Source: Pocillopora damicornis
Lineage: Eukaryota
Assembly: GCF_003704095.1 (NCBI RefSeq)
Contig: NW_020844201.1
Coordinates: 124,001-188,000 of the forward strand
Direction of reading: 5' to 3'
DNA length: 64,000 nucleotides
In this document: positions 14,060 through 64,000 of the stretch, in pieces
Layout of the letters: the number at the start of each line of letters is the position of its first letter
Position numbering within the stretch: position 1 is the first letter of the stretch
Notes under the pieces: generated by a model
The model's database searches: none
Seen by the model: the letters and a program-made list of their open reading frames with translations, nothing else
What the model was told of the DNA's origin: nothing
Translations under genes and position numbers: made by a program

Positions 14060-14254
14060 GGAAAATGCCTAACGCTTTCTTTTCTTTCCACATCGAGGGA
14101 GAATTGGGTCAGTGCGCTAGTAATGACACTAGTGAAGGAAAAAATTTTCCGCCATTTTCACGCCTCCGCACTGAAGATTTCCGTGAGTTCAAAGCAGTTT
14201 TCGTGACCTGGTGCCGCATTGAGTACCAGTCCATTTTCAACATTTTCACAAGTA
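14060..14254. promoter_or_regulatory. Bidirectional promoter/5'UTRs shared by UPF2 and TAF1C
   Basis: About 195 bp between divergent ATGs; locally CpG-rich. Confidence 0.65.
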
Positions 14255-17200
14255 ATGGCAGCGGGTAAACGAGAATTCCAAGGTTACAATTTTCCCTTCT
14301 CTGGACAAGAGAATGTTTCTCAGTGGTTTGTTGACTATGGTAGTCCTTCAATGCTAAACTTACACTTAGAAGAACATGGCAAAGAGTTAGTCATATATTC
14401 TAACCGATCACACGACTCACAAATACAACAGCTGGTTGCAACCCAAACAAGCTTGCCATTTCTTGATCCTAACCAACATTCTCCGGCAATAAAAGGGGAA
14501 AGTTTTACTGATTATGAACTAAGTGTACGCTCACTCGAAAATTGGGTCAGTTTAGAAAAGGCTAATATACATGTGGAGAACTTCGCGGCAGATCATCCCG
14601 GCGTTATGTACTCGACTTTGACGAACCTTGCCCAAAATGAATTGAAGCGTTCTCCGTGGGGAACTTGTGGTGCGCTCAAGTCAAATTTCTTTTTGCCGTG
14701 GAAGGTTAAAGAGGCTTGGTGTAGATGTGAACTGTGCTGTTATTTTCGGCAAGGTTTTGCTAACCGAAAGAGTAATGCTGCTCGGGTTATGAAGGATTTG
14801 GAAAGTGCATTGCCAGATATCTCACCTTTTTTGTTGTATGATCTTTTCCAAGAAAGTAATGCGTTAGAGACGACACGATTTCAGTACGATACTTTCCTAG
14901 GAAACTGTCTTTCCTGTCATCCTTTGGAGACCAACAATCAGGGCCTTCTTATGTATCCAAGTGGTCGTGGCTTAGATGTTTTGAATTTACTACATATCTC
15001 AATGGATCCTACTCACCTGATGTTTGAAAGAAAGGAGAGTGGTTCAGCGTCTCTTACATCAGTACTTTCAAAGCAACAGTTTGCAATTCATGGTCAAATA
15101 AGGCAGACCGATTTCTCTGCCTACAATCAAAGTGACATCATAGTGGGAGTTCGCTCACAATATAATTGCTCATTCTTCCAGAGTAATCTAAGCACGTATA
15201 GAGAAGGGGTGAGTAAACCATTGCGGGTACAAATTTTATGTGATCTCTGAAAAATACTTGTGCCAAGTTGGTGGGAGTTTATTTAAGAGGGAGAGTGAAA
15301 ACTAAACGACTGACTGGTGGGTTTATTCCAGATTATTCCAGATTAGTATAATGGTTCAATTTTATTCATAGTTTTAAATTTATTTTCCTTTTTCACTCTT
15401 ATTCATCATCAATTACAACACCAAGAGACAAAAGAAATTGTAATATTTAAATTAAGGAAAAAACTAAACCAAAAAATATACATGAACAAGAATGAATAGA
15501 AAATGTGCTATAAACTGTTAAAGTGAGAGAGACAGCATAACTGATATTCAAAGTATGCTTCTAGCTTGTTGAGTCACAGAAGGAGTTCATTCACAGGATG
15601 GGTAGGGAAAGAGTAGCAAGTCCTATCCAACCAGTGGGTCAGCTACTGCATTATTTGACACATCACCATGCTCCCTGATACATTGGTTAAGGCTGGTTTT
15701 TCTTAATTCCATTCTGTATGAGTTATTGGGAAGGCTTAAACCAGGAACTACCAGATTATAACTTCAATAGGTTATTAATAATGGTAATAGGATGGAGTGG
15801 AGTCCAGTTCAGTTTGTAATCATACAAGTGATTAATGAAATTGAACAACTGCAAAGTGGGAGTCTGATTTGTTGATCACAAGTATGATTACAGACAGAAT
15901 TGGACAACAAGAAGTCTTGTTACCAATTAATCATGACCATTTCAATTTCCCAAAACAAATACACCTGGAACAAATATCTCCAGTGAAACCAATGTCTTCA
16001 GTTAAAAATTCCTTCATTTTGGAAATTCCCCAGTTTTTCTGAGAATAAGTGGTTGTTGTTAGGGTTATTTTGATCGTTTCTGTGATTGATGGATTAGCTG
16101 AGTGGACTTAGTATGATTGGCTGCTTCAACTGTTCAATTACAGGTATTCTATTACAGCCAACTGTTTGATTACACTGTCCGATCACAACTGTACAGAATA
16201 ATTGGTGAAAACGAAGCTGGGAATGCACCAGTAATATTTGAGGAATTTGTTATGGTTATGATTAAAGCCATAATCAAAATTATCACAAAATTCTTGAATG
16301 TGATTGGTTATCACCAGCCTGATTTAAGCACTAATGAGAAAGTATACGCATCATGCTCGCAATTGGACAGTGACACATAGTGGTGACATGAAGTGGACAG
16401 TACTTGTATCATTTGCATGTTGTCATGCATTTTGCCAAGTCAATTGTAGTTTATCTATGAAAATGTAGAACCAATGCCTGGTTTTTTTCTCAAATTTTGT
16501 CATAGTTTTTATTAAGTGGTAAGAAGACTTCATACCATCTTCATGCCAAATTGTTTTAATCATTCATATGATTACTGACTGAATTAGAATCCACCCAGTC
16601 CTATTATGGTAACCATTAATTATGATGCAGTAACCATAAGGGTACTAACAAGAAGGAGAAATAGGTGCTCTCCCAACATAGTTGATAAATTCACCTTTCC
16701 AGGTTGGTTTGAGTCATTTGGCTGATATGAGAATTATAAACTACCTCAAGCTTGGGTATGCATGAATGACAAACTCAAAACTGGTCAACAACGTGGAGTG
16801 AGAATTTAAGACCAGTTTTGGTGCACAAAAGCAAAATGAATTCACTCCCAGATTGCCTACAGCCCTTATTAGCTATCATGCATGTTTAAATTGCATTGGA
16901 CTGGTGAATTTTAACTATGAATTATTCCCCAAACACTGATACCAAAGAAATTCCTACATGAATAATGCAAGAAAGTGGAAGACATTCATAACAATGAAGT
17001 GGCAGCAAGGCTTAGGGGTGATTTTTTTCATAAAATGACATAATCAAGTGTTTGAAACTTGCTCTGGATGAAAAGTTTAAAACTTAATGTTTGTGTTTTG
17101 TCCTCAGCTATCTATAAGGCCTTTAGAGACATTAGCTCTCAGTAAACAAGCCATGTGTATTGCTGTTAACCCCTACATTCCTGGAGAAGCCATCATTGTG

Positions 17201-19722
17201 ACAGAAACTGGTGGAGTGTACTTGTGGTCATGTGACCACTCTCTACAGACTGTTCATCAACCTAACTCTCCCAACAGTCAAGAGTTGTCATGGTACCAGT
17301 GTGTCTTTGCTGCAAACCCTCGGTGCATAGCATTGGCAGATGCAAAAGAGATGAACTTGATGGATTTCAGGGTAGGATGTAGTAAATTTTTCATGTGTTT
17401 AGCATGATTATGATAAGTGATAATTACATGGCAGGCCTATGGCAGATGCATCAAAAACGTGCCAAAGTGTGGTCATAGTCAGATTTGGACATTAGTCACA
17501 TGCTTGTTGAAGTGAAGCCCTGTTGACCAAACATAGTATCCCTTGTTGCTGACATTTTTTTCATTTTTGAAGGAGGCAATGCAATAAATTTGTTGTTTTC
17601 AGCATATAACCAAGGACTGTAGGTAACAATCAAGGCATCCCACATTAATGCCTCCAGGCATAATGTTGTTTTATCATTGAAATACACAGTACAGACTTAC
17701 AATTTTTCATCTTACTTTTTGTGACAAATGATACCTAAACAACATTTTTGTTTCTTTTCATAGGCTGGAAAACTGTTCCAAAAGTTTTTTTTCTCCATCC
17801 CATCACCCGAAGTTGACTCCTTTGAATGTGTGTCTGCAATTCAGCGTCACCCACAGAATACCCACCACTATGTATTGGCCACTGATCAGTCACTTTTGCT
17901 TCTAGATGATCGATTTCTTCAACACCCAGTCTTAAAGTGGAGACATCACAATGAAGACCCAGTTCAGTTCATTAATGTTAATTGTGATACAATTCAAGGG
18001 TGCAATGACACACGGTTGGTGATTTCTGGATCAAATCATCAACAGACTCACTGCTTTCAGTATTTTGAAGGCGAGTCCCAAGCAGGAGATGTCATCCCTT
18101 TAAACAAAGAAGAGTGTTATTTGCCACCTCAATCAACAACTCTTCCATGGAAGGTAAGTCAAACCTCTTTTTTAAGAGCTGCATCCATGAATGGGGTAAT
18201 TCTGAGCAAAGGTTTGTCTCTTTAATGGTGTAGCACAAAGACATTATTGGGCTTTTTTTTTCTCATTTGAGACAAAGTTGTGTCCCCTGAATAGAGAAGC
18301 CTAATGAAGTGGCTTTCTGTCTGCACCAGGGCCTAGTTTTCCAAAGGAAGGATAACCCTATCAAATGGATGAATTATTCTTCAGAGGATAACTGTTAACA
18401 AGATGCACTGCACTGTCAACCAAATAGAGATTTGTCCAGTGGAATATTGTTATCCACCCCTCAAACAACCAGACTACAGTCCTTAGTAGGGTTGAGGGTA
18501 AATAATTATGCACAGGTTACATTTGTGGTACTAGCATTCTCTTAATGCCAGTTGTGGCTGGATAGGTTTGATGCATCAAAATAATCTTGTAAATGACAAG
18601 TGGTTTTTTTGTGAATAGGGCAGCAAGAGGTTTTGTTATAGACAAGGTTAGGGTTTTAGGGCCTTGGTAGTACACCCCAAAATATCCCATAACTGAACCC
18701 TTGGAAGGTAGACCCACAGCTATTTCAGGATTTACTGAGCCTTAAATAGCTTCTTCTTGTTGAAGGTATCATCCTATAGTGAGTGGTATTACAAAGGGCT
18801 CAGGAGTGGCCTCACCTCCTCACCAGCAAGTGCTTTTCGCTTGTCAAAACCTCTCATTGGCATCTGCACCCTGTTACACACCTCCCATCCTCAAAAGGGT
18901 TTCACTGTCTTTCAAATGTCATCTGTTGGTGATTTATTCTACCAGCCATTTGTTGTACGAGATGGCAAAAATTCAACAGGAAACTTTTCCTCTAATAATG
19001 AAAGTGCTGCAATTGCTATTGATGACCTTGGTCCTAGAGCTAAGATTCTGTGTCAAGGATGGATTGATCTTGCTAATTTTCAAAATGAAAACTTTGTAAA
19101 ATCTGCTCAAAATCAAGAAGAATGCATTGAGGTTGACATTGAAGCTCTTTGTGATGAAGTAGCACTTTTGCCAGAGTCTCATCCCTGTTGTGTATTGTGT
19201 AATAACAAGCAAGTTCCTAACACCATGCTGCTGGAGCTGACAGATTCTGGATCAAATATTTGTGAAAGATGTGGACTGGGGTTGAGTCACAGTTTAAATC
19301 TGGTAAAGAATCAAAAGAACGAAGGGGTTCTTACAAGAGAGACTCTATGTATGCAATTTGAACCAAAAGAGCTGGGAATTTTTCCAGATAAAGCTACAGC
19401 TACAGACCCTCTCAGTAAAAGTCTCTGGTTAAATTGGGCAAGTTTTGAACCAATACCGGTTTTCTCATCAGAGGAAAAAGGATCAGAAAATAATGAAACT
19501 GAGAAGAAAAATGAAAAAGGAAACATGGTGCCATCACAGGCTGCAAGGGTCTCAAAATCAAAAGATCTGTTATGTTCTGCTAGACAGAGCAGTGAATTTG
19601 ATGGTACTCTTCCTACCAATTCAGTTCAAAATCAGGGCACACCATCTTCACCCCAACCAAAACAAGTGAAGAAACAATCAAAAGTGAAGAGAAAACAAAC
19701 TCACCATGTCATGGGCTTCTAG
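14255..19722 (+). CDS. TAF1C: TATA box-binding protein-associated factor RNA polymerase I subunit C-like (SL1/TIF-IB)
   Basis: Four phase-0 exons 14255-15208, 17108-17371, 17764-18153 and 18766-19722 join in frame. WD/beta-propeller-like segments (VNPYIPGEAIIVTETGGVYLW, LLLLDDRFLQHPVLKWRH, FQMSSVGDLFYQ) and a basic C-terminus ending in MGF, as in TAF1C/Rrn6. Confidence 0.82.
15776..16620. repeat. Interspersed non-autonomous element(s) with inverted ends in TAF1C intron 1
   Basis: 15776-15850 (ATGGTAATAGGATGGAGTGGAGTCCAGTTCAGTTTGTAATCATACAAGTGATTAA) is inversely similar to 16550-16620. There is an internal inverted junction near 16262, and 16290-16350 resembles 10420-10480. Confidence 0.5.
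18328..18475. mobile_element. Short palindromic MITE
   Basis: Imperfect TIRs GGCCTAGTTTTCCAAAGGAAGGATAAC and GTTATCCACCCCTCAAACAACCAGAC. Confidence 0.5.
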
Positions 19723-21777: not shown

Positions 21778-22314
21778 TCAGCTTGAAGTTGAGTTTGCAT
21801 CGGAACTATCAACAGAAACCAGCGCTGAGTAATTTTCTTCGGACAACATGGTATTTTCTTGTCCATTAATAGTCTTTTCAGTTTCTAATTTCATGTTTAT
21901 CGAGTCATCTTCTTCATCAAATTCATCATCTTTTCCATAAATTTGAGGAAACTTCACAAAACACTCCTGCATGTCACGAAACTGTGGAATACAGTCAGAA
22001 CCCTTTGGATCCGCTTCGCTGTAATGAAAGCATGAGAATGCTGCTTTGAATTGTTCTCCACAAGGCCCGTATGCCATTCCCTGCAAACAAGGGCAATCCC
22101 AGTTTATTTCGCCGCTTTCTGTGATCAGACCTTCTAATTCTTCTTCGTCATCTTCGCCCAATGTCACAGAGCTTGGGGTCGCATGGTCTTCCTCAGTCAC
22201 GAAAATCACTTTATCTTTACCTACGATTGGAAATACGAGTTACTAGATATTTATTAAATAATTATTTTAAATTCATGACAACACTTTCTTACCCTCTTCT
22301 CTGCAGTAAGACAT
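21778..22314 (-). CDS. CHCHD4: Mitochondrial intermembrane space import and assembly protein 40 (MIA40)
   Basis: Exon 1 22314-22293 (MSYCREE) and exon 2 22220-21778 join in phase 1. GEINWDCPC redox motif and twin CX9C ([22 protein letters not shown]). Confidence 0.97.
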
Positions 22315-38097: not shown

Positions 38098-41000
38098 TCA
38101 GAGAGTACCATCCGGATGTGAAGATTGAGAAGGGGCTCTTCGGTCGTTTGACTGTACATTAATAGTCGATTCAGCTGTCTCATAAGGCCTGAATGGAGCT
38201 CTTAGCGCGGATAAAACTCTTTGCAGAAGTGTCAGTTCAGAAGCTCCTGTCGACCTGGATGAGTGTTCACCGATTTCGGTACGGTTTGAGATTCGAGAAC
38301 GAGTGGAAAGGTTTCCTAGAAATACTGACACAGAAGACATAGAGTTCAATGAAACGTTACGCGAGCTGGGTGGATAGTTAATTGCTACATCACTCAATGA
38401 ATCAGAGAGTAAATCAGCAACATTGGACGTAACTGTCGAAGGTGAAGTAGGATACTCAACTTGAGAAACTTTAAACAGACTTGAGGATGACTCTCTTGTT
38501 GAGTCCCTTATTGATGTTGCTTGGGGCTTGTTTTCATACGACAAGCCCCTCCATAGGTTTCTTAGGGATTCTGGTGTAAGCGAAGACACAGATTCTATCT
38601 CCGTCTCACTAGAGGTTTTATCTAAATCGTTAGAATACTTTGATGTTGGATCTATCACTTTCACAACGGGTAATTCTGCATCACCGAATCTTGAAGCAGG
38701 TGCTGAGGGAGAAGACGCCTCCATTTCAAACATTTTCGTCGAACATTGTACATTTGATGGTGAATCAGCTTGCATATAACATTGATCCCTGCTAATTCGA
38801 GCAACCTTAACGGAACTTGGGGGAGTCTCCTTTGTTATATCCCTTGTTGGAACAGCCGAGGGCTCATTTTCACACGACAAGCCCCGCCAAAGGTTCTTCA
38901 GAGATCCTGGGGTGAACGAAGACACAGATTTGAACTCCGTCTCATCCAAGCTAGTGTCTGAAGCGTTGCTGTAGTTAAGTTTTACATCTGTCACTGACCC
39001 AACGGGTGAATCTAGATCACTGATTCGTGATGCAGGTGGTGATAACGTAGGGGATGGCTCACTTTCATACAACGGCGCTGAACATTGTGCAGTTGATGGT
39101 GGTAGATCGGGTNNNNNNNNNNNNNNNNNNNNNNNNNNNNNNNNNNNNNNNNNNNNNNNNNNNNNNNNNNNNNNNNNNNNNNNNNNNNNNNNNNNNNNNN
39201 NNNNNNNNNNNNNNNNNNNNNNNNNNNNNNNNNNNNNNNNNNNNNNNNNNNNNNNNNNNNNNNNNNNNNNNNNNNNNNNNNNNNNNNNNNNNNNNNNNNN
39301 NNNNNNNNNNNNNNNNNNNNNNNNNNNNNNNNNNNNNNNNNNNNNNNNNNNNNNNNNNNNNNNNNNNNNNNNNNNNNNNNNNNNNNNNNNNNNNNNNNNN
39401 NNNNNNNNNNNNNNNNNNNNNNNNNNNNNNNNNNNNNNNNNNNNNNNNNNNNNNNNNNNNNNNNNNNNNNNNNNNNNNACGAAGATACAGATTTGAACTC
39501 CGTCTCATCCAAGCTAGTGTCTGAAGCGTTGCCGTAATTCAGTGTAACATCTGTCACTGAGCCAAAAAGTGAATCAGGATCACTGAATCCTGATGCAGGT
39601 GTTGAAAGCGGAGACGATGGCTCCATTTCATAAAACTGAGGTGGCCAATTTACAGTTGACGATGAATCGTGTTCTCTGTAACTATGATCCATGCTAACTT
39701 GAGGATCTTCACTGTGGCTAGACAAAGGCTCGTTTGCTAGTTTCCTTATTGATACAGCTGAGGGCTCACTTTCATAGCCCAGCCAAAGGTTTCTCAGTGA
39801 TCGTGGCGTAAGTGATGACACAGATTTCCCCCATGTGTCACTAAGACTAGTGTCTAAATCGTTACAGCGGTTAAAAGTAACATCCGTTGCCGAGCCGATG
39901 GGTGAATATACATCACTGAATCTTAATGATGGATCGGGATCCATGTGACAGAGGTCCACGCCAACTGGTGTAGATATGAAAGCTCGAGGCTCTATTTCGG
40001 AAACCTGCTCTGTAGGTTGCAGACTTGACAATAACTTTGGTTCCATGTGACAAAGTTCTACAACTACTTGACAACCCTCTACAAGACGGACCTGTGAGTC
40101 CATTTTACGTAGTTTTGTCGATATGGTCGGTGACTGACTTTCAGACGAAAAAGTACCAGATAGCTCCATTGGAGATCTTGGTGTGCAACTTGTCACAACA
40201 GCACTGTTCATTCCAGAGCAGGTGCGTTTTACATCTTCCATCTGGAGGTGATCGCTAGTACCTCTTAAATACCGTTTCTTTCGCCTTTTCCTAACGGAAA
40301 AAACATAACAAAACAAAAAGCAAAACAAAAAATAAAATGAAGAGAAATTAGTAGCTTTCTTGACGTAATTATTTCCTAGCCCTATCATAAGATCCACGTT
40401 TCACACAGTAAAACTAGACACTGTATTCCATTAAGAGAGCAGCCATAAATTATACCCATCCAAGCTCTTTCATGAACTTTATTTTCATGATAAGGTGAGA
40501 GTAGTAGGCTGATAATCAACGCAATTGTATTCACAAAAGTGCAGACACCCAGTCATCCTTTCCGAAAATTGTCATTCGAAAAATTAATGTCAAAAATAAA
40601 GGATTTTATTTCTAATTACCATAACAGAAGAGCAACGACAGCTAAAACGATGATAAAGACAACGGTACCCACACTTGAACCCACCGCCGTAAGTGCCGAG
40701 CTTCTTTTAGCATCTCCTTTGAGAAAGATACAGAAAACTAGTAATGTGAAGGATAAGCATACTGATGTTTACTTTATCCAAGCGTACATTTTCGGTTAAA
40801 AGTAGAAAGCTTTCGTCTGAATCTTAAATCGATGAACAGGTACAAGGCAATTTTCAGCAACCGCGCCAACAACACTGCCTAAGAAGACTTTTTCATGTGT
40901 GTTCCACCTCAAATATATATATATATATATATATATTGAGAGAGAAACAGCTACTTGCAGCTGACAGATGCTATGGCTGTGAAGTAGATAGACTTTCTCA

Positions 41001-44000
41001 CGCCAGTTATCAAACTCGTCACGAGTCAATCTAGTCGTGACAAATTGGACGAATGGAACAATAAATTTTCAATCGATCTCAGTCCCTGAACTTTCTTTGA
41101 ATTATTCATTAACGAATAATAAAAAAACCACCACAAAATATAGTGTTCGATTTTGTAGCTCTTGATTGTTATTTTAAGACCTAATTATTAGCCTTATAAC
41201 GTTTCATGATGCCCCACAGCATTCTAATGCGTCACAAGTGTAATACAAATATCGTGATGGGATGATTCACTGCACAGATAACCTGTTTCAGTCAGGTGAG
41301 GTTGACAATGTATGAAAGTTACGTAGGAAGAGGAAATCTTAAGTCTAACTTGTTCCCCTACCGTAGAATGACACCCTCACAATCGTTGTGTCTCGTAAAG
41401 CATTTGTGGTAGATGCGTCACGAGCCTCTACGACAAGGACAACAACGTCGCCTGCGGTAAAGGTTATTGGTGCCACGAGAAACAAATCCCCGCTTGAAGA
41501 ATTGATCCAAAATAGCTGCTTTTTATTTCCATCTGTTATTTCAAAGGCCACCTCTGCATTTTCACCAATATCCTTATCACTTGCCTGAAAGAAAAAATAA
41601 CAGCACACTGACTACGACATGAGATTGGGACAAGTTTAATTCTCAGCTCACTTAGTATCTACTTCGATTCATCGGCTTTCTCTTGTTTGTCTGCGTGACT
41701 TTGCGTCAAGATATTTTTTGTTTTATCAACTCAGTTGATAATACAAATTGGCCAACGTTAATTCCAAAGCTGACGTTTTGAGCGTTAGCCCTTTGTCAGA
41801 GGCCTAATATCGAAGACATAGGCCTGCCAGTCTCTTTTAAAAATTTGCCGCCACATAATGAGACTATTTGCCTTGGGTATTTTTGTCGCTCTGCCAGCTT
41901 ACATATCTACACATTCTCACCTAGGAGAAGGTAGTATAGCCTCCATAGTTTTGTTCTCAACATATTTGAACCGTTACCCTTGAGGTTTCACAACAACTTC
42001 GCAGCGTTGTGTAAAAATACGGAGGGGTAGTTGCCAGGATGGCCATGCTCAATAAGAGACGATCTCCAAACAGTGAGTTTGGAACAAAAGGATTCTGACA
42101 GACTTTTACTGGAAAGAATGCCTCATCGCCCAGATAGCAGGCAAGAGCCGCTTAAATTCGCGTTAGAGCAAACAATTCAAAACATTCCGCAATGGGATTG
42201 TACCTTCGTCAATTGGAAAGAATTGCAAAAGATTTTCATAGCAGACTTAGACTTGCAGCTATAGGAAAGATTTAAGATCGACCGATACCATTAAACCCTG
42301 CACAGATGCTACTTCAGTTGTTACACGTCCTAGGTTAATACTCACATTTAAGTTTAACAGTAGACCAGGCTTGGCATGCAGGCTCAGTGAGATGGTGTAC
42401 TCCTCTTTAGCTAGCACTGGCGGATTATCATTGATATCTTCAACAGTAACCAATACTTCTGCATGGCTGTTGTAGGACCCGTTAAGGAAATGAAGACTTG
42501 CCACCACAGTAAACTGGTGAAAGTCAGCAGTCTCACGATCAAGGGCTCTCGCAGTCTTAATCTCACCAGAAATCTGATTCAAATCGAACCTGGAATTTAA
42601 AGCAACACAAAGTTAATTTGTTATATTAGCTCTCAAATCAAGTTCACGATCATGATTGAGAGAGAAAGAAATTTCACGTGTCTGCTTGTCTAAGACGAGA
42701 TACTTGTTGCTCAGAAGAGTATATCTCACAAAGAAACCGTTAGACCGGACAAATAAGAGGTTGTGTGGTTGAAAATTTCTCTCTAAACTTTCAAGACAAA
42801 ATGATATCTTTAAGACGTGCTTACCCACTAAGATGATTGTTGTCAGCGCTAAAACAAGTCATTCACCCCGTTTAACTACTTTATTTGCCACATATCTCCA
42901 GATTAACTTAGAAATGTGGAAACTATTCTCTGATTTGAATTGGAATCAAATCAGACACCAGATGAATCCAAACAAGTTTCCCGAATCTTCAACAAACTAA
43001 TCAATAAACGAGGCAAAGAAATAAAAACAATCCTGATTTACGTTGGGCGTTCAGTTTTAATAACGTTGGTTTGCATTAGCACAGTTGCTGTGATTTCATA
43101 TTCCGGCACAAAAGAAGATTCTTCGAGGCTAAAGGCAACAAAAGGCAAGATTCTTGAAGAGTTGATTCTACTTTGGCTGTAAGACGATACGAAACTGTAC
43201 AGGTTATAGAAAGTTATACAGAGAAGGATGACTAAAAACTTACAAATACTTGGAGTGTTCATTCTTAAAAGAGTACGAGATACTTTCACTCAAACCAGTA
43301 TGGCGATTAACTGCCTAGAGAAAAAAATACCAGAGGATTAAAAAGTAACTTTTGGTTAATGTAAATTGATTGGTTAACAACGTAATTAGCTATTCACCGA
43401 AGTTGAGGTGGCGTAGTGGTGAATATTTACCGAGCCGCGACACGGATATTTGCCCGCAGACATAATCTATTTCAAGATCCGATCAGTTTTCCGAGAGCGG
43501 AGCTCTAGGGAAACTGTGAGCTTCGAGGAACAAATGATGTCCAAGGACGAATACAAGCACGTTTTTGCGCAAAATAGAGGTTAATGTGTTTATTATCCGT
43601 CAAATATTTTTTAACACGCTTGATAAATTGTTTACGAACAGCTTAAGGGAACGGAAACTCGTCACAATTTCCTGGTACACGGGAACTGCTTCGGCGGACT
43701 TACTTCGGACGTCAAGGATCAAATTCAATTTGGTTCCGACAAAAGTTTATTCGTTCATGCCGACAACTTTAATGACCTCTAGCGTACTCAATGATTTAAT
43801 CGCCTCACAGACATCAATGTAATCCCCACACAGTCACCAATGTTATCCCCACACAGTCAGCAATGTAATCGCCACACAGTCACATCTGTAATCACCTCAC
43901 AGTCACTCATGTAGTCCCCCAAAGTCACCAATGTAATCTCCACACAGTCGCCGATGTAATTCCCACAGTAACCGATGTAATCCTTGGTGTAATCCCAACA

Positions 44001-47000
44001 GAGAGAGAGTGATGCAGTCACCACATAGTCACCAATATAATCCCCACACAGTCACCAATACAACCCCACACAGTCACCGATGTAATCCCCACACAGTCAC
44101 CAATGCACTGGCAGACCATACTATGTGTTAGTGGTTAATAATTGTTGACATAAAACGAACAAAATCTATGAGGGTTATGAATAAAGCTCTGAAAATTGCA
44201 CAACTAAATTACATCTCGCTTTGAATATCTCAAGAAAGTTAAATGAAAGTTAAATCGACGCATTTGTGGTATTTTTCAGCCTTCATCGGCCGTTTGAAGC
44301 GTCTTTTATAAAGTTACTTTTGGCTGGAGTCAACGTAATCGAAAAAGCAAAAGCTTCACAACGGGTTGTAGCGAAAACGAGGACTCCCGAAAACAAAGAC
44401 CTAAGACCCGAAAACGAAGACCCCTCATTATCTTTATCAATATTGATAAAGGATGTGATAAAACGCGAACTAAGTGCCAATAAGAACAGTGTTCATTTAT
44501 TAGATTCTTCTTAATACTCACTATACCTTTCTAGTAAACACAAGTTAGATCAAAATGCTAAGTTGACGGCCTTTCAGTTGAATCCACTGACGTCGAAGCC
44601 CGCTATAATTAGTTTTTTCTTTTGCCGGCTCCTTTTCTGTAATTCAAAATTCCGTAAGAAAACCTCTCCAAAGCTTCCTCGGCCTATTTGCTTTTTCACA
44701 TGCAGCCGTTATTGCATGTCCCGCACTGCAGAGGCCACCATGTGCTTTTTGCCTAGAAGCGTTGGCAACCGAAGTGGTGCAGACATTGCGAAAGCCGTTT
44801 TGCCAAAATCAAATAAAGAAGCAGGAAGGAAACCTGCCTTCACGCAATACTGAAAATACTAAACTGTATGACATTTTTCCTGCTAGACCGGCATGTGTGA
44901 AAGAAGAGCAGCGCCGAAGGAAATAAAGCGATCTGCGGTTTAGCGTTTAATGTAAACGTCCGGGATTTCGCTTTTTTTGATTCATGATTTTGAATGATCA
45001 CGTTGCGAGCAAAGAAGTTGCCAAGCTTTTAGCTGTTTTTCATCGGTGAACCCATAAAGCTTGACGCACTTTCCTATATCAATATGGTGAAGGGGTCCTC
45101 GTTTCTGCAACAATCCTTTACAACGTACTTCCTTAAGTGCCATTGCGCTCGTGGTTCTATTGTTTCCTAAATTAACAATATTTGAATAGCATCACAATAG
45201 AAGCGAAAATGGCTCTTTGAAGTTGTCGATTCTACTAAAATACTCCATCTGTTCGGAAGCACTAACTAAGAGGACGGAGATTAAACTCACAGCTTCAAAA
45301 ATAAAAATACATAATTTAGCAACGTAGGATGTAATAGTAATAAGTCAATTAAAATGTCTTCTTATCAATGCGATGTTGGTGTTAAGTTTGAACAAGTGAA
45401 AACAAGGAAAATCATCGTATGAAGAGAGCTAGAAATCATTTAATTTTCCCGTAACATTTGATACCCCACAGTATTAGCTAGGGGATATTCAGTCGTGTGA
45501 TGCGTTTAGACCAATCGCACGCGAGTAAATATATTTGATGGAACATATTATCATATATCGGCAAGTTTGTGATGCGTGATGCGTGTAGACCAATCGCGCG
45601 CGAGCAAATATATTTGATAGAACATAATAACATATAACGGCAAGTTTGTATGTGCCATTGAGTTATTATTGCCATTAATTTATTTACTCGTACTGGCGAA
45701 AGCCTTAAAGAAGATTATACACATCCAGGAGGTTCCTTCTCTAAACTGTAGCACTAAGTGTTTCATCTTTGAGTTTTTTCCTGCATTCCTAACAAGCCAT
45801 CCTTAGTAACTATAAATATACTAACTTGAAGGTAAAATACTGCACAGCAAAACAAATTGCCTGCCTAAACTCCTATTTGTGAGCAGTACCCTTAAGCCGT
45901 GAAACAAGACAAACACTGTAAAAAAACTCTCTCAACTTTTTCTGATTCATTTTCTCAGGATGAGACCCATTAAGCGTAAACTTGATGTGTTTGACCCAGT
46001 TTCCATTGCTCTTTTCTAGGCGGAACTACATAAAACAGTAATGCTTAGAGTATCGTGATTGAAAATACTCCGTAATTCTCAATCGGGCTCAGGAATACAG
46101 CAAAAAAACCATTGTAACGGCATACCTTAATAAATCCAACAGTAAGCCCGCTTTCGCCTTCCCTCACGCTAAATTTGAATGAAGGATCTTCAAATAATGG
46201 AGGGTCAAGGCATCCTGAAAGATCCACAGTCACGGATGCAAGCTCTACCAACTGTGACCTACCGGAATCTTTAGCTGTGACTGAAATCTTATAGAATAAA
46301 TTGTCTTTTAGATACCGCCGCTATCAAAAATAAATAACCCAGGAAAAAACGTCAGCGGATGCAAACAAATACAAATTGGAATATTCCCCTGTGAAATTTC
46401 CAGCTTTTCCATCACCCACTTGCCTGACTTTTAATTTCAATTAAAGGATTAAAAAAAATCCAAAAATTCCTTTCTTTTCCCTCTCCTGAAGGGTAATTAA
46501 AGGATTTTTAAAAATCCAATTTCCTTTCTTTTCACTCTCCTGAAGGGCAATTTGAAGGAGGAGATTGAACATAGTCTAGATATAGCCATTTTAAGTACGC
46601 TTGTTCTGCAGCTAAGTTAAGATCTTAGCTACATGTACCTTGTTTACCAAGGCTGTATTTTTGTTCTGCCCTAGCTTTCAGTAAGAAGCAAAGGATTTGC
46701 AATGGATTCCCTGATTGATTACCATTCTGTCAACCAGTGGTGTGACAGAAACAGTGTATTTCTGCTTTTACAATCAGTTACCTTATGATGGTTTCCTATT
46801 CCTCAAATACACGCTGCTTACTGCAGCAAATCTGGTTAAGCAAACTGTAATGGTAGGTAACAGCTAGAGGAAAATTCAACTACCTCTACAAAATGATATG
46901 TAGCTTCATCTGCCACCAAATTCCTTCTGGTCCGTAGGGTACCAAGATGGTCAACAAAGAATAGCCCCAAGGAATTACATGTTAACACAGCAAAGGACAC

Positions 47001-49674
47001 ATTGGACTGAAACAGACAGAATATTAATCCACTGTTATCTCCAAGAGCTATTAAGAATCACATGAATAAGATTTCAACCACAAATGAAATCACAAGGTCA
47101 CAAAGTGACAATTAAAACTAGACACAAACATTTTAAAAAGTTATTTAGTGAAAAAAGAACTGCCACTTGCCAGCACTCCACTGGAAGTCTGCTATTTGTG
47201 CAAAATTCAACTTCAACCAATTTTCAGTATTATAGTTAATAAAAAAGTGAAATTTAAGTAAACAGTCATTTCCTTAACTATGGCTATTGATGCTTACTAT
47301 ATTGTGCACGCTTGATGTCTGCAAGGCCAACTGCAATACAGCATAGCCTGGTGGAATATTGTGAGTTACATTTGCTTGATAAGAGTGTTGAGATAACAGC
47401 AATTTAGAATCACGACAGGCTTCATTTGCATTACCCACACAGTATGTCACACAGTACTATGAAAAAATAAACATATAAAACCAGTTTAACATTGTGCACA
47501 TTAAAAGTGTGATTTTAGCATTGATGATGAAAAACACTGTATACTTAAAACAATCCACACATGTATGCACTTTGGCTTACTGAAATAAAAAAAAAAAAAA
47601 CAAAGGAATAGAGCATAAGGCATGAGCGTGAAAGGTAAAAGACACAAAGATAGGAAAAATGGTTGGGACAAACTTGAGAGAAGCATTTAGATGACATATT
47701 TATTTTTTTCCATTATTAAAGGGTTTTCAGTTTTTCACCAATGCTCAAATAAAATTTTCATTAAAATGCATGATCTTTACCAAGGTGTCCACAGAAGATT
47801 GATTTGAATCTTTGCTGACTGCCATCAGAAATGTGCCCACATAAGATGCATTTGACTGTATGAAAGAATTATCAAAAACACATTTTTATCATATTTCAGT
47901 CAAAAGTAGTGCTAATTGGTCAGTACTGTACTGGGGAACTCAATAATGTTATATACCAACTAATAATGCTACATACTAATAATGTTATAGACTAACAGTT
48001 TCAAGACATACTACATCTTTAATACACTCTACTTATGAGCTTGGACAGGCGCTTCCTTTAATGGAGGACCCTCTACCATATGTTTGTATATTGTCAAAGA
48101 TAAAGCAATTTTTTGGTGTTCATGAATGTGGCAGATATCAACTGGGTTTCTTCATAAATATCCATTGCCATTCATACCCATTTCAGTGAATTACATATTG
48201 CCATCTATTGTTAACTCCAGTCTATTCTTACCTGTGATATGTTAACAGTTTCTTTGCTGTAAAGATTTCCTGTTTTGTTGCTAAGACCAAAAAACCGATT
48301 ATAGGCAGGATCCTGTTGTACATACCAAATGGTATCTACACTGAAGCTTAAGTTTATGAGTGAACCTTGAGGGAAAGAAAAAATATCAATAAGGTTTTTA
48401 CAATTAATTGCTAATATCTTTAGCAGCAGTTTTTTAGGAGATTGTTTTTCAAGAGTTACTTCTAACCTCAAGGTAAAAAAGAACTTTTAAAATAGTAAGG
48501 CTGTAACAGTGAGGAAAGAAAAATACTGTAATTATAAGGAAGTGAGACAATGTGGTGAAGAAGTTGCATAATGCTGACAGGATCTAATCCAACATTCCTG
48601 TGCTTGCCACTCAAATGTACACAGAAAGCTGTGATAGAGCAAAGATTTTGCACAAGAATCAAACTTGTACTCAAACTCGACCCAGTATATACTTACAGTA
48701 AGTATAAAGTTGTTTCAAACAAACAAGTAAAAAATGATAGCCCTTTCAAAAAATCTACGGCTGTGAATTTGACTTTTTTCTATGGAGATATTTAACCTAG
48801 TATCTGATCAAGATTACCCGCCCCCCTGGATCTTTTTCTCAAGGGATTACTTGCTTCCCTATTCATTTGCAATTCCATGCATCCATGTTAGAGTAGTTAC
48901 ACATGCTGGTTATTCAATACAAGCCAATATAACTGATGGCAACTATAACTATAGTTAATCTCAAAAGGTGTATGTCTCCAAAACTAAAAGGTCCATCAAA
49001 TCGCCCAGTTTCGGGGTAAGTGGCCACCAAAGCATTGTCTCACAGATTACCTTCTGAAAGTCCTCCAGATATAACCAATGTTTCATTCTCAATTGGTATA
49101 TTAGGTTGCAAGTTGCCACCTAGAAAAAATATCACGCTACAAATGAGGTCTTTTTTCGTAAAATGAAAAAAGAGATGGTTTAAAACATACCACAGTTGCA
49201 TAGTTATATACAAAGTAAGAAGCTATTACTGACAGATAAACTTGATTCACCCTAAATAAAAGTATTTCATTACCTTACATGAGAGGCTTTTAATATGTTT
49301 TCAGGCTTATAAAACTAACCAATTCGCCGCTATAAGATTCAGTGAAAATCCTACACGATAGAGACATTTTAGGGAAAGGATCCCCTTTATTTCTAACTCG
49401 TGTAGGTCTCTCATTTGAATACTATTTGACTTGCTCTATTTTAAGTGCAATCTTGGCCATAAAAAATTTCACTTTGCGTAGGTAAGGCTAAATTGGATTA
49501 CAAAGATAACGAAATCCTGATAGCTGGACAATTTACCCGCCTAAAACAAAGTCATTAAGGTGAAGTTCTACGTAAATTAATGCGTTCTAATATCCCGGAC
49601 TTACCTGACTTAAGTGTGGAGTTTAGCTCCAAAATAAAAAGGGACACAACTGCTAACGGGCAGCTCAAACCCAT
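38098..49674 (-). CDS. Cadherin-repeat type I membrane protein (protocadherin-like) with long repetitive Ser-rich cytoplasmic tail
   Basis: Largely phase-consistent exons: 49674-49606 (MGLSCPLAVVSLFIL, signal-like), ~49119-49051, ~48365-48232, ~47856-47782, ~47456-47298, ~47006-46883, ~46321-46126 (YKISVTAKDSG...PPLFE), ~43314-43244, ~43177-43041, ~42589-42347 (GEIKTARALDRE...VEDINDNPP), ~41585-41374 (ASDKDIGENAEV), ~41337-41283, ~40716-40620 (TM helix), ~40290-38098 (WKRRKKR plus tail spanning a gap). Confidence 0.85.
40913..40936. repeat. (AT)n microsatellite
   Basis: About 12 AT units. Confidence 0.9.
41721..41802 (-). mobile_element. Penelope-like element terminal relic with degenerate minimal hammerhead ribozyme
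   Basis: Minus strand CTGACAAAGGGCTAACGCTCAAAACGTCAGC resembles the HHR core CUGAnGA...GAAA...GUC with G>A changes. Confidence 0.6.
43815..44105. repeat. ~23-bp minisatellite
   Basis: About 12 imperfect copies of CACAGTCACCAATGTAATCCCCA. Confidence 0.92.
44363..45116. mobile_element. MITE with 8-bp TSD (hAT-like)
   Basis: TIRs GGGTTGTAGCGAAAACGAGGACTCC and GGGGTCCTCGTTTCTGCAACAATCC; flanks TTCACAAC and TTTACAAC. Confidence 0.75.
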
Positions 49675-53882: not shown

Positions 53883-55150
53883 CAATAAATAATAATAATA
53901 ACCTTTATTTATTACCTTTGGCGATAAGAATTACGGTAATATTACAATAAAAATTCAAAACACTACATATTATATAATAATATACATATCAAATCAAGTT
54001 AAGTTTAGCACCTCTAGGAACAAATGATTGTTTNNNNNNNNNNNNNNNNNNNNNNNNNNNNNNNNNNNNNNNNNNNNNNNNNNNNNNNNNNNNNNNNNNN
54101 NNNNNNNNNNNNNNNNNNNNNNNNNNNNNNNNNNNNNNNNNNNNNNNNNNNNNNNNNNNNNNNNNNNNNNNNNNNNNNNNNNNNNNNNNNNNNNNNNNNN
54201 NNNNNNNNNNNNNNNNNNNNNNNNNNNNNNNNNNNNNNNNNNNNNNNNNNNNNNNNNNNNNNNNNNNNNNNNNNNNNNNNNNNNNNNNNNNNNNNNNNNN
54301 NNNNNNNNNNNNNNNNNNNNNNNNNNNNNNNNNNNNNNNNNNNNNNNNNNNNNNNNNNNNNNNNNNNNNNNNNNNNNNNNNNNNNNNNNNNNNNNNNNNN
54401 NNNNNNNNNNNNNNNNNNNNNNNNNNNNNNNNNNNNNNNNNNNNNNNNNNNNNNNNNNNNNNNNNNNNNNNNNNNNNNNNNNNNNNNNNNNNNNNNNNNN
54501 NNNNNNNNNNNNNNNNNNNNNNNNNNNNNNNNNNNNNNNNNNNNNNNNNNNNNNNNNNNNNNNNNNNNNNNNNNNNNNNNNNNNNNNNNNNNNNNNNNNN
54601 NNNNNNNNNNNNNNNNNNNNNNNNNNNNNNNNNNNNNNNNNNNNNNNNNNCGGTAGGCCCGATATTAATAGGAGCAGGAATTGGACAGGACTTTTTGGAA
54701 GGTGATCCATATATCTTTGGTCTTTTTAGCATTCAGCTCCATTTTATTCTGCACAGCCCATCTTTCCGAGTGAGTCACAGCATCCTGCATTTGACTGAGA
54801 GATTCCTTAAAAACAAGTTCGTATAGGGTGCAGTCATCAGCGTACTTGCAAGTGGATACAGGTATTCCCCTGGGGATGCAGTCCTCAATATCGTTGACAT
54901 GCACATTAAAAAGTGTAGGAGAAATGACATCGCCCTGGGGTACACCAGCAATCACCTCACCATGTCTGGAGAGGACTCACGGGAGCTTAACCTGCTGTGT
55001 TCTGCCTGATAGGTAGCTCTGTGTCCATTTCCAAAAGCTCATGGTGATGCCCATGCCAGCGAGTTTAGTCAACAGAACGCCATGAGCCACCAGATCGAAA
55101 GCTTTTCGGAAGTCTACAAAGACCACATGCACGCCATTATATAGACTTCC
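53883..55150 (-). mobile_element. Non-LTR LINE (CR1/L2-like) with gap and (TTA)n-like 3' tail
   Basis: VHVVFVDFRKAFDLV...AGVPQGDVISPTLFNVHVNDI...KYADDCTLY; AATAAATAATAATAATAA tail at ~53885-53901. Confidence 0.88.
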
Positions 55151-56249
55151 AGAANNNNNNNNNNNNNNNNNNNNNNNNNNNNNNNNNNNNNNNNNNNNNN
55201 NNNNNNNNNNNNNNNNNNNNNNNNNNNNNNNNNNNNNNNNNNNNNNNNNNNNNNGACATGACAGGCATTAGTTATTAAGAACTTAGGTACCTCGGAGGTA
55301 ATCCTAGTCCCTGTAGGGATGTTTATTCATTTCGTCGCTAAATGCCCAGCTCCATATTTGGCTGATTGTACGCGCTGATGGGTAGTGATGAACGTGTTAA
55401 TACGTTGCGAAGATAACATGGCAGCTCTTTGTTTTACTCTGGCCCCGGCTCGAACTCCTCTCGTAGCCCTAAGGATATTGATGGAAGTCAAAGTGTTGTA
55501 TAGAGTCGATTCAATACGAGGGCGCCCATTGGGTCTTAGCGACATGAGGAAAACAGACGAATAAATTCGCTTTAATTTTTTTCTTAAATACAAGAAAGTT
55601 AGTGAGAAGAGTTTGATTCTCGTAGTTGATCTTGAATACCCCAAAGAATTACATAATTTGCATAATGATTACCGATTAGCTGCTGAAAAGATTACTGTCA
55701 GTAATGAAATGCTATTAAAATATTGTCAAGAAATTAAAGAAAATGAAGTGTAATATCAGCATTGAACAGGTTAAAAACTTATTCCAACATTATCTGAAAA
55801 ACAAAAATATGAGCTTTACCATAGCAACCTGCAACTGAATCTAAATCTTGGTCATAAAATAAAGATCCATAAAGTGTTGAAATTTAATCAATCTCCATTG
55901 TTAAAGCAACATATTGACTTTAATACAAAAAAGAGAACACTAGCTAGAAACTCATTTGAAGAGTATTTTTTTAAATTTATGAATAATAGTGTATTTGGCT
56001 ACACCATGAAGAATACCAGAAAGTGTGTAGATATTGAATTGATAACAGATGCTAACAATCTTGTGAAATATACAACAAAACCAACTTTTGTAGGCAGTAA
56101 AATATTCAACAACAATCTGGTTGCAGTTAGTAAGATTAAAGAAACACTAACTCTCAAAAGGTCAGCATATGGTAAGATGTGTATTCCGGATCTTAGCAAG
56201 ACATTGATGTGTGATTCTCACTGCAACTATGGCAAGGATAAGTGAAACC

Positions 56250-60090: not shown

Positions 60091-63000
60091 GAGCGCTTGT
60101 CTGTAAAAATCAGACATATTATAAATTTCGCGGCTAGGGTGAAAAATTCGAGTTCTTTCTTATTTTGATATTAGATAGGCTAGACTATAAATAAAATCAC
60201 TGGATACTTTTTTGGGCCTAATATCTCTTATTTCAGAGAAAAGTACAAATAAAATTCCGTTAAAACTCCCACTTTTAGCACCAAATTATTGCACAAGTTT
60301 GAGGGCTTCGTATTTAAAAACGAATCACTATCTCGTTTTTTTAACACTTAAATCTTCTTTTTAACCTCATAAGACCTCACAAAACGATTTTTGTAAACAC
60401 TGCGTTCCTTTTTGCGTGTAAAATAATTTAATTTCGAAAGCATACATTTCTCTTCAGTAAAATTACTTTGTGAGTAAAGTTAATTTTCAGCATGTGCTGA
60501 ACCTTCAAATGGATTAAGCTTTTGGCGGTAGAATTAAGAAAAGATGTTCTCAATATTACTGTAAAAATTTCTTTGTGCAAATGATTGAGAGCGATACAAA
60601 AGCTTTTCAAAGTCCGTTAAAACGTAGTTATTTAACCTTTCGCAGTCAACATTCCAGTCGCGAGTCACACTTATATTTTAATATGTTTCAACCCATATGA
60701 GGCCGGAAAATGTACATGGGTACATATTTCCGAATGGTCTAACCTTATTTGCCGTAGAAGAAAGATCCAAAGACTATTTTACTGTGGTTGTCTTGTCGCT
60801 CATCATATTTATAACGTCCGATGAAACTGCCTGTCAATCTGCGAACGGTCACCAACCTTCGTTGTAAAACGTTTGACATCCTTCTGCACTGTGGCATCTT
60901 ATCCAGCGGTTCAGTTGACTGTGAGTGTTGTTCGGTTTCTGGTGCTGTAGATCTGATCGATGCTTTTAAAAGTGGCACTACACATATGTTACAGTCAACG
61001 TAGTGTTGTATACGGAGAGTCGTCAGGCAGTGCAAATCATACAATGGAAAGTTATTTTTTAGGGGGTAGGGGAAGGGGAAAGCAAAAAGACGTCACTCTG
61101 CTACTCAGCTTTGTTGTTGTTGTGAACATCGAAATCTCTTACATGTAAGTCGCGGAGACGGGGCCTTTGGCTAGTACTCATTAAAAAGCTAAATTTAGTG
61201 CCTGCTAAAAATAGCAGGCCTAAGTAAATAAAACCTGGTTTATGGTAATTACACGATGCCTATTGTCTGCTTAGAGGCGGGGCTTCGAACTTTGTTTTTC
61301 ACAAATACACCAACTTACACTGCCAATTTTGTTACATAAAAAATGGAAGGTTGTTGTTTGTGCAAGTCGCTTATTGGCGGAGTTTGTGGTTACAACACTA
61401 GAGATCGAAAGCGTGAAACGGAAGTTGTTCCTTTACTTTCATGCTCTAAGAATATCGCAAGTCATAGGTCGGCTTTCAAATTTACTGGTCCTAAAGATGA
61501 GATCGACCCTATTTTGTGCGTAGCGTCAATGTTTACTAAAAACACACGCTCGAGTACAATGACGATATGTCCCAACCATCGCGCAAAACTTGGATTGGGG
61601 TGGACCAGAGGATCCAGCACAAGGTGCAGGGTTCCGGAAAGAATTTCCAACCATAATAAAGGGAAAGGAGTGTGGCCAAAAGGTGAAAGAGGACTGGGTA
61701 AAAGGGGATCTGAGGCGATCTTACGCAAGACTGGTTCGTTTGTACAAGTTGGATCCGGGTTAGGGTTAGGAAGTATTGTTTTATTTATTTATTCATTTAT
61801 TATTTTTTTTTTTTATTATTTATTACTGTCAAAAGATTGATCCCTAATCTGTCCAGATATGGATACAACATTGCGTGGCACCATGTGTTACTACATGGTA
61901 GAGGCTCAACTGTTCCTTTAAGTAACAACACAAGAATGAAAGTCTCACCACTGAAGCTTGACCACTTCTCAACATTTATTACCAGTGCGTATGTAACGCA
62001 AGATTTGCCATTCGGCGAGAAAAGCTTGAAGTTATCCTCAAACACCGAGACAAAGATCCCAGGACCATGATCCCAGAGCAGATTGTCCAACAGTACCAGA
62101 GTTACTGTTATGAGACTAGGTTTGTTTCAATGAGCCACAATACACTGTGTGGGATTCTTAAAGTTTGTTCGGCCTCTGTGCGCGTCTTTGCCAGGACTCA
62201 ATTACGCGTCAGCAGAGGGAGCAAAGGCCTTTGACGAGTTGGCAGATGTCATCGACAAACTGGGGGACAACCACAGCAAAGGGCTCTCCTGGGCAAAAGA
62301 CCAAAATGAGAAACTGAAGCTGGCAAAACGCTATTTTGAGCGTGACTTTAAGCTAGGTGTACGTAAGTTTAAAACAGAATAAAAGTTCTTTTGTCAGCTT
62401 ATTATTAGATTTCGATGAAATCAGATATAACTGAATTGAAAAAATGACTTATTGCGCTGTTATGTATCAAAAGTACGTGTGCATAAATCCTAGCTGGAAA
62501 ATTTCTTAGAATAAATTGTGCTATTACTTTTCAGTTGCAGGTGCATGTATTACCAAGTTGCAGACCATTGTCGGGCCTTCGCCCTTAGCTATCAGGGAGA
62601 CACGGATTATGTTAGCGCCTGTAGTCATGATCACGACCTTACATGTGATCGATGCGACTTATTAACAAATGTTGTCTGCGCAATTGAGTTAGCTCTGGAA
62701 AATGTTGAAATTTCAAGTGACGAGAAAGGTGAGATGAAATGTTTTATATTCTCTGGCTAAGAAAAGAATTGAACCATGGAAAGCTCACTTGCTCCGATCG
62801 ATCAATCAAGATGAGGCGAGACTGGATGCCATCAACAATTTGGACGCTCATTCTGTACTTTAAGTCATGGATTGGGCTATGAAATACCTCCGAAGTAAAT
62901 ATCGCGAGAGTCAAGCTGATTGGTTTGGAAAGAGAGGAATTTCGTGGCATATAGCCACTGCTATGAGAAAGTCCGAAGGTCAACTATAAATGATGACGTT

Positions 63001-64000
63001 TGTGCATATTTTTCAAAGCTGTAGTCAAGACAGTGTCACAGTTTTGGCTATTGTAGATGACGTCCTGAAACAGCTCAAAGCAACAATGCCTGAATTACAT
63101 CGCGTGCACTTCAGACAGGATAATGCTGGATGCTACCACAGTGCGTCCACATTACTGGTAATTGAGCAAGTAGCAAAGAAGTATGACATCAGCATCACAG
63201 TGGACTTTTCAGATCCACAAGGGGGCAAAGGTTCGTGTGACCGCAAAGCAACCACCATCAAGAGCCATATGAAGAGATTCCTAAACTCTGGTCATGATAT
63301 CGAGACTGCCGAGCAAATGAAGAGTGCCATGGAGTCCTCTGGTTGTGTACCTGGAGTAAGAGTCAAGCTATGCAGTTCACAAGATATTCCCAAGCCCGTG
63401 GCTGTAAAGTGGGAAGGTGTGAGCTTTGTCAATAATATTGAATATGGCAGCGACGGAATGAGAGTCTGGAGATCATATGCAGTTGGCCCTGGTAAAGTTC
63501 TACCATGGAATCACTTCAATCGCCCAGAACGCTACTCCGCATCAGTGCTTAACCTACTTGGGGATGCTACTTCTCCAAAAGCTATGTTTACTGCACTCAC
63601 ACCAACGCAAAAATTGGCAAAAACGCAGCAAGAGCAATTCGCATTGGGTCAGGCGGAAGCTGTAGATCAATCGGATGACGAAGAAACAGAGTGCCACGAT
63701 AAACTTTTTTCATGTCCTGAAGAGGGACGTGTAAAATCCTTTCAAAGATTTTCGTCTCTCCAATACCATCTTGATGCTGGATGACACTGCTACGCTTTAG
63801 AGCATGAAACGTATGCCGAAAAGCTAGAACAGGGTGTTGCCACAGTTTAAGCCCCTATTGATGATACTGGAACACCTCAGTCATTGGTTTTCCTTCGCCA
63901 TTGCAGATGGGCTGGGCGTTGAAATCATCCAGAACACAAAGGACTCGGCGGAGGGAAAGCCAGAAACAACATCTCACTGCTGTCTTTCAAACCGGCTAAC
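60091..64000 (+). mobile_element. Sola3-like DNA transposon (5' part) with disrupted, intron-containing transposase
   Basis: Left junction TTAA|GAG matches the Sola3 TTAA TSD and GAG terminus. Transposase from 61343 with DWAMKYL...ESQADWFGKRGISWH, RQDNAGCYH and DFSDPQGGKGSCDRK catalytic segments and a C2H2-like FSCPEE...LQYHLDAG. Contains stops and frameshifts. Confidence 0.75.

Follow-up and report, generated by a model that had tools for sequence, protein, structure and literature searches.

Analysis of a 64,000-nucleotide stretch of the Pocillopora damicornis genome (contig NW_020844201.1, positions 124,001 to 188,000; hereafter the window, whose own numbering is used throughout) identified a gene whose predicted product is best read as a non-classical cadherin with a single membrane pass, found in pocilloporid corals and about 1130-1250 aa long. 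Its last exon encodes a tail of 656-770 aa built of tandem units of ~113 aa (111-114 aa). Among the paralogous units of the window, a core of 12-20 aa is under purifying selection and the linker is neutral, and the number of units appears to vary, at least between lineages.

Gene model and ectodomain

The gene comprises 12 exons that start at 49674 on the minus strand, remain in frame and are joined at GT-AG sites throughout. In order, they encode a probable signal peptide, an N-terminal domain of ~110 aa, three cadherin (EC) repeats, a transmembrane (TM) helix, the basic cluster KRRKKR and the repeat tail. The coding part of exon 1 (49605-49674) holds the ATG and the probable signal peptide, recognised by eye, and ends in an in-frame GT donor. 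Exons 2-4 (49119-49051, 48365-48232 and 47855-47781) encode the N-terminal domain, possibly a degenerate cadherin repeat; an EC profile HMM does not separate it from shuffled sequence (6.5 vs 7.4 bits), and its EC identity is unproven. Exons 5-7 (47456-47298, 47006-46884 and 46287-46126) cover a divergent EC2 and the start of EC3, exons 8-10 (43314-43250 or 43244, 42589-42346 and 41584-41362) EC3 and EC4, and exon 11 (40716-40620) the TM helix, placed by its Kyte-Doolittle maximum and donor score. Exon 12 encodes the entire predicted cytoplasmic tail, the KRRKKR stop-transfer cluster first, and runs from an AG acceptor at 40290 to a TGA stop at 38098, which reproduces the single ~2.2-kb tail exon of an earlier note on this DNA. 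Exon 8 (43314-43244) offers two in-phase donors 6 nt apart. A 23-bp minisatellite occupies 43797-44105 in intron 7.

Sixteen proteins matched the window ORF in a protein search: 13 unnamed ORFs from ENA (P0001 to P0013), P. damicornis pdam_00017732 (P0014), a P. meandrina protein (P0015) and a Stylophora protein (P0016). The ORF downstream of an assembly gap in exon 12 is 100% identical to P0014 over 95% of its length and 94% identical to P0015. P0014 includes an extra exon of ~29 codons in intron 8 (about 43130-43040, minus strand) that P0015 lacks, and P0015 uses the farther of the two exon 8 donors, GTAAGT.

Together with Pfam matches, these Pocillopora proteins bear out the earlier assignment of the locus to a cnidarian cadherin-domain gene. 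Pfam Cadherin (PF00028) matches two stretches of P0014 and three of P0015, with E values of 4e-17 and 8e-28 on EC3/EC4, and our EC HMM scores EC2, EC3 and EC4 at 20, 61 and 41 bits. Only the EC3-EC4 linker carries the full set of calcium motifs (LDRE, DINDNPP and DxD); the EC2-EC3 linker is without them, EC2 has no DxNDN linker, and the TM exon follows directly after EC4.

Outside Pocillopora, the ectodomain matches generic cadherins at 24-35% identity, with no orthologue among the best 120 of the 170 matches listed. The best of these matches are protocadherins and Fat/Dachsous-like proteins, which have in common with the coral protein a large last exon and no classical cytoplasmic domain. However, protocadherins have 6-7 ECs, whereas three were detected here plus one unproven, and the coral protein has no match to a Pfam protocadherin tail family. 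With the type III classical cadherins of cnidarians (Nematostella Cad-1/-2, Acropora skeletal cadherin) it shares EC repeats and a single TM helix, but those proteins have 14-31 EC repeats together with LamG and EGF domains, and their tail is short and bears p120 and beta-catenin sites (PMC4948710, PMC4890752), whereas the coral protein has three to four ECs, no LamG or EGF Pfam match (in P0014 or P0015), no catenin motifs and the long repeat tail. As the earlier note had surmised, the strict motifs of classical tails are absent: the p120 groove-binding motif [ED]GGGE has 0 matches in 4/4 proteins, the beta-catenin motif D-x4-aromatic-xx-E-G likewise has 0 matches, and no Pfam cytoplasmic domain falls on the tail. 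The product holds at least two EC repeats, the criterion for the cadherin superfamily given in the accessible text of PMC13245172, and we classify it as a member of that superfamily that is neither a classical cadherin nor a desmoglein.

Repeat units, copy number and selection in the tail exon

A repeat finder recovered four 153-nt copies in the window, 67-71% identical to the reference copy and spaced 336, 563 and 333 nt apart; TRF did not report the array. The units start at 39926, 39593, 39030 and 38694, within 3 nt of where the earlier note had placed them, and the near-identical ~50-bp block that it saw in two copies matches at 50 of 51 nt. Its period of ~111 aa needs widening to 111-114 aa, the youngest duplicate measuring exactly 114 aa, and of its core, TP-x-S-L-basic-NLW, the NLW part holds in Pocillopora and the S-L does not, since the copies hidden by the assembly gap read FTPGFIRNLW. 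The lysine of SLKNLW is restricted to the window and P0014, with arginine in 13/13 ENA ORFs and in P0015. The repeat lies far beyond chance: a unit HMM scores 82-187 bits on the window units (partly its building set) and 163 bits on P0148, a distant homologue outside the building set, whereas the highest score among 500 shuffles of P0148 residues 1-450 is -1.2. A six-frame search with this HMM found no paralogue of the unit elsewhere in the window.

The array opens right after KRRKKR with a degenerate unit 0 (40241-39957; HMM 20-22 bits), which carries TPxSP, has no NLW and groups with the P0148 units as a putative ancestral type. Unit 1 follows at 39956-39639 (core 39824-39777), then the first half of unit 2 at 39638-39479, the assembly gap of 366 N at 39478-39113, the unit after the gap at 39075-38734 (core 38928-38881) and the last full unit at 38733-38428 (core 38592-38545). 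A D-x-x-I-x-Y motif left from one more degenerate unit (38391-38374), below unit-HMM detection, precedes a unique C-terminal segment. Between units 0 and 1, segments 39937-39966 and 40039-40068 form a short internal duplication (LCHM-x-P) with a spacing of 102 nt.

The gap sits at the young exact 114-aa duplication and hides one or two FTPGFIRNLW cores, in line with the earlier suspicion that copies were missing there. The reading frame across it is intact, 13/13 ENA ORFs crossing the region without a stop. Nine of these (P0004-P0012) have the marker residues of the window, five NLW units and the exact 114-aa duplication; P0013 has P. meandrina-like markers and four units; P0001 carries six units, P0002 and P0003 seven each, the extra ones coming from exact duplications with periods of 342 and 337 aa. 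Four units would require 145 nt in place of the 366 N of the assembly, and five units 487 nt; since the haplotype type of the window carries five, 487 nt is implied. Copy number thus ranges from 4 to 7 (n=13), as the earlier note had thought possible. Four versus five units tracks two haplotype groups and may reflect a difference between species. Loops in an assembly can also produce exact duplicates; yet the units joined to make the seven-unit form have only 12 exact nt in common in the window, fewer than usual assembly k-mers, which favours a real junction. The last exon most likely grew by repeated in-frame tandem duplication, probably through unequal crossing-over, and seems to be duplicating even now.

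Both P0014 and P0015 place an intron inside exon 12 (39499-39061, minus strand) that cuts out the FTPGFIRNLW core(s). Its donor scores -6.8 and its acceptor has no pyrimidine tract, and it is probably an artefact of bridging the gap that was carried over by homology; if it were a real exitron, it would alter valency.

The pN/pS ratio among the paralogous units of the window was 0.66 (95% CI 0.54-0.80) for the whole unit, 0.37 (0.16-0.67) for a 20-codon core, 0.26 (0.07-0.66) for a 12-codon core and 0.94 (0.62-1.50) for the linker, crude values from simple counting over non-independent pairs drawn from three complete units and a partial one, with the core chosen after looking. Synonymous divergence was similar in core and linker (pS 0.45-0.51 vs 0.44), nonsynonymous divergence was not (pN 0.14-0.17 vs 0.42), and conservation was concentrated on a 16-aa core (column permutation, p=0.0024). 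Selection thus constrains the protein that the exon encodes in this frame, the core more strongly than the linker. Between the two haplotype groups, 0/16 differences fall within the 64 core residues of 656, too few for significance.

Homologues and candidate functions of the tail

The earlier expectation that the core would outlast the linkers, which holds among the Pocillopora units, does not extend to the NLW heptamer in homologues. Stylophora P0016 has about five segments, with NLW in 1/5 and the whole core deleted in two, and P0148 has four units with NLW in 0/4. Compared with P0148, the Pocillopora units have an identity of 0.52 in SVSS-x-TP-x-S, 0.50 in ExEP, 0.41 in D-x-x-L-x-Y, 0.34 in the linker and 0.21 in the NLW heptamer; compared with Stylophora, they have 0.35 in the heptamer and 0.30 in the linker. 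The heptamer is no better conserved than the linker in these comparisons, which marks NLW as a derived pocilloporid feature and not the family core; the deeper family signature comprises D-x-x-L-x-Y, SVSS-x-T[PR]-x-S and E-x-E-P. The locus is a small clean case of a short motif born in a neutral-looking repeat, amplified and then placed under purifying selection in one coral family, and its natural 4-7-copy forms offer material for valency tests.

P0148 was the sole new repeat match (E 2.8e-23; blastp 6e-25) among the best 150 of the 641 profile-search matches listed; the alignment behind that search kept the helix-turn-helix (HTH)-bearing N-terminus of P0016, and 147 of the 150 match that region, so weaker repeat homologues may be hidden. 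This N-terminus (P0016 residues 1-175) has hundreds of relatives and is probably a transposon ORF that a misprediction joined to the tail exon; no Stylophora ectodomain was found. In a unit tree of 12 rows, with three short segments left out and a midpoint root for drawing only, unit 0 and three P0148 units separate from the eight other pocilloporid units with 99/99 support, the one split that was resolved. In the simplest history, an ancestral unit would have been amplified separately in the pocilloporid and P0148 lineages, and the NLW helix would have arisen before the Pocillopora-Stylophora split. Gene and repeat are best read as lineage-restricted, a range drawn from the 150 matches listed. 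P0148 residues 433-893 form a C-terminal extension without Pocillopora counterpart or Pfam match, in which two basic-hydrophobic R-F-x-L-F-G-x-K-K segments, then R-P-S, could be membrane-binding or kinase sites.

The tail gave no credible match in Pfam, NCBIfam or PDB sequences, where only matches below curated cutoffs appeared, or in the ESM Atlas (query P0014 residues 330-700), so the repeat matches no described domain in what was searched, as the earlier note had supposed. The open literature searched (with subscription papers and bioRxiv supplements outside reach) held no description of gene or repeat: the locus tag pdam_00017732 was absent, SLRNLW gave only unrelated text, and the accessible content of 10 supplements of the P. 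damicornis receptome paper (PMC9897584) did not include the tag.

How the tail might work is less clear, and we give no more than even credence to our preferred proposal, in which the tail docks multivalently: motif cassettes carried on flexible spacers would attach to a cytoplasmic partner, to another tail or to the membrane, with serine clusters as tuning elements. Each ~113-aa unit would combine a Ser/Pro/Glu-rich flexible spacer with a short cassette ordered as D-x-x-L-x-Y, a serine cluster ending in T-P-x-S, the pocilloporid N-capped amphipathic helix (L/I-R-N-L-W-R-G-L) and E-x-E-P. The T-P before the NLW core could cap the helix, which would fold once it contacts a hydrophobic groove in a cytoplasmic protein, a second tail or the inner leaflet of the membrane. 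Phosphorylation of the neighbouring serine cluster would adjust this binding, copy number would set avidity, and the ectodomain would use its one canonical calcium-linked EC pair to engage a partner at the cell surface. In this proposal, disorder, binding, phosphorylation and avidity are each tentative.

Disorder, part of the earlier note's picture of a phospho-regulated array, is suggested by a Ser/Pro-rich composition (Ser 18.7%, Pro 8.8%), borderline FoldIndex values (0.025-0.035, with 22-40% of windows disordered) and an AlphaFold model of one unit without a fold (pTM 0.13, pLDDT 56, from a shallow five-sequence alignment). The same model has one short four-residue helix from the TP proline, and 12 of the top 14 hydrophobic moments among 268 proline-free 11-mers fall on NLW cores. 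Phospho-regulation found nothing in its favour beyond composition: S/T-P sites in the four-unit form number 17, with 14.4 expected (p=0.23), and CK1-type relays show little or no enrichment. WIRS, PPxY, dileucine, YxxPhi and MDM2-type patterns are not enriched in the tail. Docking helices of the p53-MDM2 type are amphipathic with a Phi-x-x-L-W-x-x-Phi spacing, which 3-4 units per Pocillopora tail and one Stylophora unit share, but the anchoring Phe is missing in the coral tails and the F-xxx-W pattern has 0 matches in 4/4.

Tail units of ~29 aa are found in desmogleins, which are vertebrate proteins and likewise combine a short cadherin ectodomain, a TM helix and a tail of tandem repeat units with a terminal domain. 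They may be the closest functional analogue of the coral protein, although unrelated to it: no sequence likeness was found (Pfam and PDB blank for the coral tail), the coral protein is without an intracellular cadherin-like segment, and the likeness is one of analogy only. In the accessible text of PMC3494854, desmoglein-2 repeats mediate tail-tail binding and inhibit internalisation, possibly additively.

We assign a lower, still appreciable probability to the tail being mainly a length-variable spacer, in which duplications are tolerated as frame-keeping and the core is conserved through gene conversion or a constraint that is weak or transient. The near-neutral linker, the frequent changes in copy number, the loss or deletion of the core in most Stylophora and all P0148 units, and a 46-nt exact tract common to two units, which suggests conversion or recent duplication, all favour such a spacer. 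But conversion alone would lower both pS and pN in the core, whereas only pN is low, and SVSSxT[PR]xS and ExEP are ~50% identical to P0148 compared with 34% for the linker.

The 15- and 20-residue repeats of APC carry a D-x-x-hydrophobic-x-aromatic element near a serine cluster, which the coral tail units may resemble. An unlikely alternative is an APC-like array of beta-catenin (armadillo-groove) sites, each a D-x-x-L-x-Y with a phosphorylated serine cluster downstream, without a classical cytoplasmic domain. D..[LIVF].Y has 3-4 occurrences in Pocillopora, three in Stylophora and two in P0148, against 0.03-0.21 expected (repeats not being independent), the Tyr column is kept in 11/15 segments and the Asp column in 10/15, and D-x-x-L-x-Y matches the first half of the beta-catenin motif D-x4-aromatic-xx-E-G as given in PMC13245172 and PMC5968619. 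Yet the strict DxPhiPhixOmega-x2-7-E consensus, taken from the accessible text of PMC8228192, has 0 matches in 4/4 tails (a relaxed form has 1-2 per tail), and both an EG ending and the p120 GGG motif are absent. Moreover, the coral tail is membrane-anchored in our model, and no sequence homology to APC, whose repeat counts appear in the accessible text of PMC3529405, was found. An equally speculative extension is that such a phospho-switchable armadillo-groove array replaced the classical catenin-binding domain, each site with a newly evolved pocilloporid amphipathic helix, and that copy number (4-7) is a heritable dial on adhesion strength or beta-catenin sequestration between and within Pocillopora lineages. 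Should the tail prove to bind catenins, a cadherin would be linked with the junction machinery by a new route; lacking a partner, the protein is an interesting orphan, not a new system.

Membrane topology and neighbouring features

The position of the tail depends on exon 11. In the frame that is in phase with both neighbouring exons, it reaches a 19-residue Kyte-Doolittle maximum of 2.79, whereas the public models P0014 and P0015 read it in another frame and leave it early, and so are without a TM helix. Donor scores are 4.8 and 8.1 for the in-phase model vs 3.8 and 2.8 for the public models (from a position weight matrix of only nine donors). P0148 has an exon boundary and basic cluster as at the start of the Pocillopora tail, and the Stylophora model enters the tail exon in a frame that hides the cluster. 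The earlier placement of the tail exon after a TM helix is thus consistent with phase and splice sites, and the junction itself stands on the sequence model, a search with exon 10 having yielded no transcript-derived protein that spans it (three matches among 114 candidates). We infer that the TM exon is spliced to the last exon and that its omission from the public models is probably wrong. Given a TM helix in phase and a basic cluster after it, the tail lies most likely, and in our view with strong reason, inside the cell. A gene probably mis-modelled without its TM helix in both public Pocillopora annotations would be overlooked by membrane-receptor surveys.

It is very unlikely that the public models are right and that the Ser/Thr/Pro-rich repeats are extracellular and mucin-like, on a secreted CDHR5-like cadherin fragment. 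Both models do agree on the alternative exon 11 frame, but this choice has the lower donor scores and skips a frame that encodes a strong helix, the basic cluster behind which is kept in P0148; N-glycan sequons show no enrichment (7 against 7.4 expected, and 0 in the P0148 repeats), and the same models insert the implausible intron across the gap. Least probable of all is a polymorphic self/non-self (allorecognition) receptor, close to the recognition role the earlier note had raised, for although a lineage-restricted single-pass receptor with allelic tail variation would suit it, the ectodomain is identical at 309/319 positions between P. damicornis and P. meandrina and the variation is intracellular, with neither YxxPhi enrichment nor a paralogue in the window (six-frame unit-HMM search).

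Elsewhere in the window, a TAF1C-like gene lies at 14207-19722 on the plus strand (PF20642, E 9e-9), and a CHCH-domain exon with a CPC motif, which we take to be MIA40/CHCHD4-like, at 21778-22239 on the minus strand (PF06747, E 2e-8). An exon at 1468-1944 (minus strand), without a Pfam match, presumably resembles UPF2, judged by eye. Mobile-element remains upstream of the cadherin gene (54665-54976, minus; 55775-56245 and 62990-63784, plus) include a reverse-transcriptase fragment (RVT_1, E 3e-13); the ORFs of the two others have a Polinton-type and transposon look by eye and no significant Pfam match. Finally, ORFs at 10706-11239 (minus) and 61340-61840 (plus) both contain the pattern T-I-C-P-x-H-R ... 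C-R-V-P, which suggests a dispersed repeat family.
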